Both the position numbers and the translations under genes were made by a program. Below the pieces are notes generated by a model that was not told the DNA's origin, made no database searches, and saw only the letters and a list, made by a program, of their open reading frames with translations. DNA of 46,456 nt from a virus (taxonomy: Duplodnaviria; Heunggongvirae; Uroviricota; Caudoviricetes): IMG/VR virus record IMGVR_UViG_2563366990_000004; one strand, given 5' to 3'. Positions 13,875 through 14,347 of the stretch are shown piece after piece (position 1 is the first letter of the stretch; every line of letters begins with the position of its first letter).

Positions 13875-14027
13875 AAACGGTTTGCGGGGAAAGAAGAGTT
13901 AAGTAGAAGTGCTGCGGGTGCTTGAGGCTGTCTGCCTCGGGCATGCCGCCGTAAGGCAGACAGAGAAAAGCCCCAGTTAACATTACGCGTCTTGCAGGAC
14001 GCTTAACATTAATCTGAGGCCCAATCT

Positions 14028-14234
14028 ATGCTTCACAAACGTAGGTTAGCCTCTTACGGACCGAAAGGTCAAGGAGAAGCAGACTATGAAGCAGCAAAAG
14101 GCGATGTTAATCGCCCTGATCGTCATCTGTTTAACCGTCATAGTGACGGCACTGGTAACGAGGAAAGACCTCTGCGAGGTACGAATCCGAACCGGCCAGA
14201 CGGAGGTTGCTGTCTTCGTAGACTACGAATCTGA
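14028..14234 (+). CDS. mok: Mok-like overlapping reading frame of the hok locus
   Basis: ORF starts 58 nt upstream of hok and overlaps it out of frame, as in hok/mok/sok loci; leader contains fold-back repeats (CTGTCTGCCT … AGGCAGACAG). Confidence 0.4.
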   Translation: MLHKRRLASYGPKGQGEADYEAAKGDVNRPDRHLFNRHSDGTGNEERPLRGTNPNRPDGGCCLRRLRI

Positions 14235-14241
14235 GAAGTAA
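14086..14241 (+). CDS. hok: Hok/Gef-family type I toxin (51 aa)
   Basis: Own translation MKQQKAMLIALIVICLTVIVTALVTRKDLCEVRIRTGQTEVAVFVDYESEK, close to HokD/RelF of the Qin prophage; RBS AAGGAGAAG 7 nt upstream. Not in the track because under 60 aa. Confidence 0.85.
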   Translation: MKQQKAMLIALIVICLTVIVTALVTRKDLCEVRIRTGQTEVAVFVDYESEK

Positions 14242-14347
14242 GAGTGACCAGGCGAGGGAGAAATCCCTCGCCACCTCTGATGTGTCAGGCATCCTCAACG
14301 CACCTGAGATAAAATCTATTTGGCTGTTTCTGGGTTCGAACTGATGA

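Follow-up and report, generated by a model that had tools for sequence, protein, structure and literature searches.

A 51-codon reading frame of the Hok/Gef type in phage DNA raises two questions: whether it belongs to a complete type I toxin-antitoxin locus with its own Sok antisense RNA, and whether that locus is likely to be active. We addressed them for such a frame in a 46,456-nt stretch of DNA from a Caudoviricetes record of IMG/VR (IMGVR_UViG_2563366990_000004), referred to here as the window. A sequence-only reading had proposed a hok/mok type I locus at 13990-14300. Peptide family, mRNA leader, mok SD and minus-strand antisense unit all match that proposal, and the hok promoter is the one exception. 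The proposed span was too narrow, as the hok promoter starts at 13882, the mRNA leader starts at 13916 and the fold-back inhibitory element (fbi) ends at 14305. Judged from its sequence, window 13882-14305 is very probably a structurally complete hok/mok/sok locus, an allele of the hokW-sokW module. It is an ordinary member of a thoroughly studied family in which a protein-identical homologue, HokW, has already been characterised experimentally; the only element out of the routine is a rare G at position -7 of the hok promoter.

By gene content the window is a lambdoid (lambda-like) prophage. The genes identified in it comprise an integrase (750-1769, minus strand), an HTH repressor (6585-6983, minus strand), YdaT-like, DnaT-like and P replication genes (7361-9349, plus strand), DUF968, RusA and antiterminator Q (15741-17995, plus strand), and genes for lysozyme and the large terminase subunit. 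The order of genes from P to Q around the locus places hok within the early-right operon, between P and Q and in the same orientation. A ParDE type II toxin-antitoxin module adjoins it. The same cassette occurs in E. coli prophages, 3' of the replication genes and 5' of DUF968/RusA (and of Q where the locus reaches that far). Homologous DNA was found in 4727 of 5426 complete E. coli genomes, at a median of 2 and up to 11 places per genome, as well as in 106 phage records and 587 plasmid records. The plasmid matches, obtained by blastn at a distant setting, were hokD/hokW-type copies only and lay mostly on non-mobilizable plasmids, with one IncY. Among the species-representative genomes scanned there was no Hok identical to that of the window, the best match being 98%. 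The host flank at 1-740 is 93-96% identical to the best full-length E. coli matches.

The toxin gene hok (14086-14241, plus strand) encodes 51 amino acids and is preceded by the SD sequence AAGGAG at 14071-14076 on the same strand. Its peptide matched Pfam HOK_GEF (PF01848) over the full profile, 1-42, with E = 4.3e-23 and 81 bits against a cut-off of 22, and it matched PHROG 251 (“MokW-like host killing”) at 1e-32. Our phage 933W reference was the annotation of GenBank AF125520, which includes hokW, mokW and a 71-nt sokW antisense RNA; the window peptide is identical to 933W HokW at 51 of 51 positions. The hok coding sequence is also identical to that of a copy in E. coli HY220605, whose hok -10 hexamer is TAGAAT. 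That a small ORF and a few hairpins came together here by chance, a reading for which the size of the ORF is the sole argument, is refuted by the Pfam and Rfam matches (E = 4e-23 and 1e-25), by thousands of homologous loci and by covariation in the Sok hairpin and in tac/fbi, and we give it practically no weight.

Upstream of hok, both frames of the sequence-only reading are present, the second being a mok leader ORF of 68 codons (14028-14234, plus strand). It has its own SD, in the arrangement GAGG-N8-ATG at 14016-14030, and it runs across the hok SD and ATG. Between its ATG and that of hok there is an offset of 58 nt, which puts the two frames out of register, whereas in 933W and most relatives mok starts 57 nt upstream and in frame; the difference is due to T14069, a 1-nt insertion compared to 933W, HY220605 and STEC1585. 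We considered whether this insertion is a frameshift lesion of mok and rejected it, since it is structurally compensated and yields a frame like that of R1, and since 1372 of 5426 E. coli genomes carry this hairpin allele, a common one. The hairpin in question, GACC-GAAA-GGTC (14059-14070, plus strand), lies between the mok start and the hok SD and contains both T14069 and the compensating G14059 and A14060, and these two changes preserve the GACC-GAAA-GGUC pairing despite the insertion. This helix (helix 1) covaries in the family, with exchanges GC/UG/UA and GC/AU. In R1, mok starts at 116-118 and hok at 174-176, an offset of 58 nt (PMC9841398). We took this value from those published positions and not from our R1-type reference, an IncFII allele found by tblastn with the R1 Hok peptide, in which the offset is 57 nt. 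Moreover, what matters for coupling in R1 is translation of mok as far as the hok start (PMC9841398), so an insertion that alters only the relative frame is not a lesion.

The mRNA leader was recognised by Rfam as RF01794, with the full model (1-157) aligned to 13916-14088 of the plus strand at 110.8 bits (gathering threshold 59, E = 1.3e-25). Position 1 of the model falls on 13916, the first nucleotide of tac (GGGTGCTTGAGG, 13916-13927, plus strand), the 5' end of the hok mRNA, which is also supported by minimum free energy (MFE) folding and covariation. Tac is followed by a 5' leader hairpin (13928-13963, plus strand) formed by CTGTCTGCCT at 13928-13937 and AGGCAGACAG at 13954-13963; it was evident from the sequence, Rfam and the MFE fold, and 933W carries a compensatory double change in it, G13930A/C13961T. 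The sequence-only reading had taken this inverted repeat for a fold-back element. The repeat is real, although it lies upstream of the start coordinate, 13990, given in that same reading, and it forms a local leader hairpin rather than the true fold-back pairing. Next come a ucb-like element, AAGCCCC (13968-13974, plus strand), which the Rfam consensus structure and the MFE predict to pair with tac in place of fbi once the mRNA has been truncated to its active form, and the Sok-target hairpin (14016-14053, plus strand), which the Rfam structure and the MFE of the truncated mRNA agree on and which holds the loop CUUCACAAA together with the SD (GAGG, 14016-14019) and the ATG (14028-14030) of mok.

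At the 3' end, a stem-loop in the untranslated region, GGCGAGGGA-GAAA-TCCCTCGCC (14251-14272, plus strand), was identified from the sequence and the MFE and is conserved among relatives with compensatory changes. By analogy with the R1 model it may act as a stop for 3' trimming. It corresponds to the proposed “3' fold-back hairpin” GCGAGGGAGAAATCCCTCGCC (14252-14272), which exists as drawn but is a local stem-loop located upstream of fbi. The fold-back inhibitory element itself is CCTCAACGCACCT (14293-14305, plus strand), assigned by MFE, conservation and covariation. When the RNA was folded from 13916 to 14305, 14310 or 14320, the MFE structure paired GGGUGCUUGAGG (13916-13927) with CCUCAA(C)GCACCU (14293-14305), that is, it formed the tac/fbi lock. 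When it was truncated at its 3' end to 13916-14275 or 13916-14285, the 5' end paired instead with AAGCCCC at 13968-13974 and the hairpin 14016-14053 formed. The predicted folds thus reproduce the switch of the R1 model from a closed tac-fbi to an open tac-ucb state (PMC9841398). Across relatives, 86% of cells in the tac/fbi pairing were paired and one pair covaried, a U-A to C-G exchange between Escherichia-type loci and Photorhabdus/Pantoea/IncF-type loci. The last position of fbi, 14304/14305, is precisely where family homology stops. In several relatives fbi is directly followed by an intrinsic terminator, CCCGCTTCGGCGGGTTTTT. It is absent from the window, STEC1585 and 933W, and none was predicted after fbi in our scan of 13700-14500. 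As Sp5 is functional without a terminator at this place, its absence here is no evidence of inactivity.

The element that the sequence-only reading had left unplaced was Sok. It had expected the antisense RNA on the minus strand over the mok start, in agreement with the placement given here, and guessed at 13995-14060, an interval that overlaps the RNA but enters its promoter and misses its 3' half. The 933W sokW annotation (2676-2746 of locus L001, minus strand) aligned without gaps onto window 13966-14036. By this homology and by its fold, the predicted Sok is a 71-nt RNA running on the minus strand from 14036 to 13966; its first 14 nt form a single-stranded 5' tail, and a long stem-loop follows before the terminal UUUU. 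Its putative promoter (14072-14043, minus strand), likewise placed by homology, consists of a -35 hexamer TTGACC (14072-14067), an 18-nt spacer and a -10 hexamer TAACCT (14048-14043), with 14036 as the start. The sokW promoter has exactly this -10 hexamer, and the Sok promoter is conserved among relatives. In Sp5, the primer YO-421 changes TAGGTTAGCC to CCGGCTCGCC, replacing AGGTTA, and the resulting “pro-less” sokW lost its antitoxin activity (PMC8621323).

The fold of the Sok RNA has an energy of -28.1 kcal/mol (z = -4.1 compared to shuffled sequences), with a long, interrupted stem. We examined it in 25 diverse relatives from Escherichia, Shigella, Kluyvera, Photorhabdus, Pantoea, Citrobacter and an IncFII plasmid. 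In the Sok hairpin, 92% of cells were paired and nine pairs showed double changes, compared to one to five when the partners were slid; clean covariation came from the outer Sok stem and the promoter-spacer hairpin only, column-wise pair counts in the inner stem being blurred because bulges sit at different positions and because the hokD/W subgroup has a long insertion. The covariation score of the hairpin was reached by none of 500 shuffles. Folded on the minus strand the hairpin has -25.5 kcal/mol, versus -18.7 on the plus strand, and several conserved pairs of the stem are G.U on the minus strand where the plus strand would have C.A mismatches. The wobble pairs and the more stable minus-strand fold argue that the minus-strand Sok RNA is the selected structure.

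These strand data bear on a different view of the locus, in which the plus-strand RNA matched by Rfam (13916-14088) is itself the regulatory RNA and no separate antisense RNA exists on the minus strand. The sole Rfam match is indeed RF01794, “sok antitoxin”, and it lies on the plus strand. However, the model begins at the mRNA 5' end and closes with the hok AUG as its final three consensus positions, so the match marks the leader of the sense hok mRNA. The 933W record has sokW on the strand opposite to hokW, and the probe YO-592 used in the Sp5 northern blots is plus-strand sequence (PMC8621323), hence the RNA detected with it was the minus strand. Together with the wobble pairs, which favour the minus-strand fold, these observations make a plus-strand regulator highly improbable, and we retain the minus-strand Sok.

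Conservation is unevenly distributed within the locus. Among 89 unique hokW-type loci of IMG/VR, per-column entropy peaked at 14017-14046, reaching 0.94 bits over 14027-14036, compared to an average of 0.2-0.35 bits in the hok coding sequence. This peak covers the target loop and the start of mok as well as the 5' tail of Sok, which together are the most variable part of the locus. As one and the same DNA specifies Sok and its target, their complementarity is always kept. Divergence of the tail and target would limit cross-talk among co-resident copies. It could be speculated that the hypervariable segment may serve as an orthogonality code against cross-silencing among the up to 11 hok/sok copies of one genome.

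The closest characterised system is hokW-sokW of 933W and of Sp5, the Stx2 prophage of strain Sakai that is related to 933W (Takada et al. 2021, PMC8621323). The window shares with it all 51 residues of Hok, the length (71 nt), position and -10 hexamer (TAACCT) of Sok, the leader architecture, the 3' hairpin and fbi, the lack of an adjacent intrinsic terminator and the setting in a lambdoid prophage. The mRNAs of window and 933W align with 357 matches, 30 mismatches and 3 gaps, and the two Sok RNAs are identical at 64 of 71 positions, with four of the seven differences within the first 16 nt (14021-14036), the part of the recognition tail that contacts the target first, which may affect cross-reactivity with SokW. 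The two loci differ in mok, which in 933W is in frame, so that MokW is a leader fused to HokW; in the -35 hexamer and spacer of the Sok promoter (TTGACC and 18 nt in the window, TTGCCT and 17 nt in 933W); in the hok -10 hexamer (TAGAAG versus TAGAAT); and in the flanking genes. E. coli HY220605 is closer still, with an identical Sok (71/71) and an mRNA alignment of 384 matches, 5 mismatches and 1 gap.

With R1 hok/sok (parB) and the IncF loci, the window has in common a hok promoter 6 nt before the GGxGCUUGAGG start, the tac, ucb and fbi elements, a promoter for Sok that lies within mok, and a Sok composed of a tail and a stem-loop; the 58-nt spacing of mok and hok is common to the window and R1. 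The R1 DNA is too diverged for blastn, and HokW is reported to be 44% identical to R1 Hok (PMC8621323). The window differs from R1 in its much longer Sok stem-loop, in an fbi that pairs with a 1-nt bulge and in its replicon, a prophage rather than a plasmid. Two further types of locus are also related. HokD (relF), which stands for chromosomal and prophage copies of E. coli and is the label that RefSeq gives to the nearest E. coli homologues, belongs to the same Hok subfamily, with 92% protein identity and an identical N-terminal stretch of 44 residues; the C-terminus reads VDYESEK in the window and TAYEPEE in HokD. A copy identical to HokD (L009) has unrelated upstream sequence without tac, mok or the Sok region, all of which the window retains. 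The hokC/gef-mokC-sokC loci belong to the same family and share its leader consensus (L016-L024), with about 80% protein identity, and they have the TTGACC...GGTC hairpin allele of the Sok promoter region in common with the window; unlike the window, they have a short Sok stem-loop and an in-frame mok (57 nt).

The Sp5 module is the one for which function is documented (PMC8621323). HokW is toxic and is neutralised by sokW expressed from its own promoter, a protection that disappears once the sokW -10 is mutated. Northern blots revealed both RNAs, with sokW measuring 71 nt. Upon induction by mitomycin C and RecA, sokW is lost and HokW appears in the inner membrane, and in Sp5 without hokW-sokW growth arrest is delayed and phage release is about 2-fold lower. 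For transcription, 3' processing, toxicity and biological role, we infer the behaviour of the present locus from this work and from R1, whose mechanism we assume to be identical. What was established on the locus itself comprises its elements of sequence and structure, how these are conserved and covary, and the identity to HokW.

On this model, an mRNA of about 390 nt would start at G13916. In the full-length molecule, tac (13916-13927) would be locked to fbi (14293-14305), so that the ribosome-binding site of mok and the target of Sok would both stay closed. Slow trimming from the 3' end would remove fbi, whereupon tac would re-pair with 13968-13974 and the target hairpin at 14016-14053 would form. 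Translation of mok (14028) would then be possible, and ribosomes traversing mok would open the hok start (14086). Meanwhile, the predicted constitutive minus-strand promoter (TTGACC-18-TAACCT, 14072-14043) would yield the 71-nt Sok (14036 to 13966), whose single-stranded 5' tail would pair with the target loop and the mok start, blocking translation of mok and hence of hok, and the duplex would be marked for RNase III. If Sok were lost, as happens on induction of the Sp5 prophage, the 51-amino-acid Hok would enter the inner membrane and damage the cell.

The element that departs from the family is the promoter that would drive this mRNA. A consensus promoter and terminator scan of 13700-14500 returned two other weak matches (0.7 expected by chance) and missed the promoters of hok and Sok, so both were placed by homology to R1 and Sp5. 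The putative hok promoter (13882-13909, plus strand) has a -35 hexamer TTGCGG at 13882-13887 (or TTTGCG at 13881-13886) and a -10 hexamer TAGAAG at 13904-13909. Between the latter and the conserved GGGTGC at which the mRNA starts the distance is 6 nt, the same as for the R1 hexamer TATGAT (PMC9841398). It reads TAGAAG, not TAGAAT, with G13909 at position -7, and it thereby departs from the TANNNT type expected 6-7 nt upstream of the mRNA start in a functional sigma-70 hok promoter, a type that defines activity and not membership of the family. In all of the more than 30 relatives examined the hexamer is of the TAnnnT type and its last position is T. With a 41-nt query centred on G13909, the G version was found in none of 5426 complete E. 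coli genomes, while the T version occurred at 3615 places in 1898 of them; in IMG/VR, no contig carried TAGAAG, versus at least 120 with TAGAAT. One possibility for this observation was a sequencing error. This was rejected, as three independent NCBI draft assemblies share the variant, one of which shows full identity to the window along 3.7 kb. In two of these (L054 and L055) hok is intact. The third (L056) has a decayed hok with a frameshift and a deletion of 66 nt, and its mok ATG has become ATA.

What does the G mean for activity? In R1, the -10 substitutions T-7C, T-12C and A-11C/G were recovered as suppressors that lose toxicity (PMC9841398). With the final T of the hexamer replaced by G, autonomous transcription of hok is therefore probably weakened, and most of the Hok in this prophage may have to come from transcripts that read through from the early promoter of the phage. 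A stronger version holds that the locus is attenuated or decaying: the change from T to G silences hok in the lysogen, Sok alone is made, there is no autonomous toxin-antitoxin system and any Hok comes from early-operon read-through. The rarity of TAGAAG, the T kept in the relatives, the suppressors of R1 and the coexistence of the same variant with a ruined mok and hok in L056 are all in line with it, and the sequence-only reading had itself allowed for an inactive remnant. On the other hand, both reading frames (hok and mok) with their SDs, the tac, ucb and fbi elements, the Sok promoter and the hairpin that Sok targets are all intact, so that suspicion fits the -10 box and not the coding and RNA-structure elements. 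The hok coding sequence does not differ from that of HY220605, which has TAGAAT, and the fixation of the variant in independent assemblies with an intact hok suggests that it is tolerated and does not lead to quick decay. For R1, moreover, the hok promoter is described as weak in any event. We therefore regard silencing as a serious possibility but a somewhat doubtful one, and prefer a complete locus whose own hok promoter is probably weakened. A more specific proposal, which we consider unlikely and offer as speculation, is that TAGAAG makes a natural promoter-down hok, with Sok constitutive and hok RNA arising essentially only after induction, by antiterminated early-right (PR) read-through.

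The role of the module in the prophage may also be viewed in more than one way. Instead of assisting lysis and release as in Sp5, it could mainly stabilise the prophage, by post-segregational killing once the prophage has excised or been lost, or defend the lysogen against other phages by abortive infection. R1 hok/sok stabilises its plasmid and partly excludes T4 (cited in PMC8621323), hok genes are about 4-fold enriched in prophages (bioRxiv 10.1101/2025.08.07.668861), and the adjoining ParDE type II module would fit an accessory or “moron” island. However, the sole direct experiment on a protein-identical homologue showed induction-coupled HokW and about 2-fold more released phage (PMC8621323), and the chromosomal hok loci tested earlier gave no post-segregational killing. 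A role other than the one in Sp5 appears rather unlikely.

For annotation, these results allow the coordinates and promoter of Sok, the true tac/fbi pair and the frame of mok to be assigned to the prophage, and they add one further hokW-type cassette, located between P and Q of a lambdoid prophage and beside a ParDE module. They also carry a warning: the Rfam “sok” match marks the sense-strand leader and not the antisense gene. The rare G at -7 of the hok promoter could reveal how prophages tune or retire the toxin arm of such a module and yet retain the antitoxin. If the promoter-down reading were true, a stand-alone addiction module would have become a strictly induction-coupled lysis accessory.

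The genes around hok place the toxin beside a second toxin-antitoxin system. Convergent with hok on the minus strand are genes for a ParE toxin (14763-15062; Pfam PF05016 at 5.6e-9, PHROG 5232) and a ParD antitoxin (15068-15388; PHROG 6494 at 2.7e-56), which form a type II pair. Given this placement, hok/sok and ParDE constitute two toxin-antitoxin modules of different types within 1.5 kb, and the same arrangement was also found in E. coli STEC1585. A 117-aa ORF (14348-14701), likewise on the minus strand and convergent with hok, matches PHROG 914 (unknown function) and had no match in a Pfam search. 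The N-terminus of this ORF, MNKTICFLLVFAISGC, looks like a lipoprotein signal. Any unterminated hok transcripts would enter the ORF in antisense.

On the upstream side lies a hydrophobic ORF of 29 codons on the plus strand (13785-13874, MTWPEAFVAVGIAMAVALVLVVYSICRWG), whose start overlaps the stop of the preceding 233-aa gene (ATGA) and whose 3' end lies immediately upstream of the hok -35 box. Compared to the 27-aa form that is kept in the Stx phage 933W, in the E. coli strains STEC1585 and HY220605 and in about 20 IMG/VR loci, the window's ORF carries an in-frame insertion of 6 nt. One NCBI assembly (L055, which has the same TAGAAG -10 box and an intact hok) includes it among its annotated genes. 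A PHROG search with this ORF returned no match, and Pfam gave a weak match to DUF2970.

Within hok itself there is a possible site of RNA editing. The Tyr47 codon TAC (14224-14226, plus strand) lies within the stretch 14220-14232, with A14225 as the candidate base; in the predicted fold it falls in a 7-nt loop, CUACGAA, closed by an AGA/UCU stem. This loop is the same as the anticodon loop of tRNA-Arg(ACG), the TadA substrate. TACGAA is conserved in nearly the whole hok family alignment. In hokB, a Tyr codon is reported to be changed to Cys by A-to-I editing, and similar editing has been described for hokC, hokD and hokE (bioRxiv 10.1101/2025.08.07.668861).

Two further small RNA families were detected in the window with Rfam. 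A match to the DicF antisense RNA (5149-5200, minus strand; 48.9 bits, gathering threshold 48) falls in the prophage's early-left region, and two full-length tandem copies of STnc100 (20587-20796 and 21073-21285, plus strand; 141.8 and 164.6 bits) lie downstream of the Q antiterminator gene.

The window's hok allele was found in none of 5426 complete E. coli genomes. For the left flank (1-740), where a YkgJ-family gene adjoins the integrase, the best E. coli matches over the full length reach only 93-96% identity. The 233-aa protein adjacent to the hok locus, by contrast with the hok allele, is listed under 198 blocks in the index of public assemblies. The prophage may therefore come from an Escherichia species other than E. 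coli, or from a sparsely represented lineage.

Loci of the hokW/hokD type, 88-95% identical to the window, are present on plasmids too. Of the 587 plasmid records, 473 are non-mobilizable, and the examples listed are about 85-290 kb in size. One of the plasmids is IncY (NZ_CP091840.1); there, IS5 and IS1 border the hok locus.

A draft assembly (GCA_014213195.1, 2200-2775) shares the upstream module and the TAGAAG promoter with the window. Its mok start codon is changed from ATG to ATA and its hok has deletions of 1 nt and 66 nt, yet the Sok promoter and stem-loop are kept despite these toxin lesions. This locus is an example of decay of the toxin arm with retention of the antitoxin arm.
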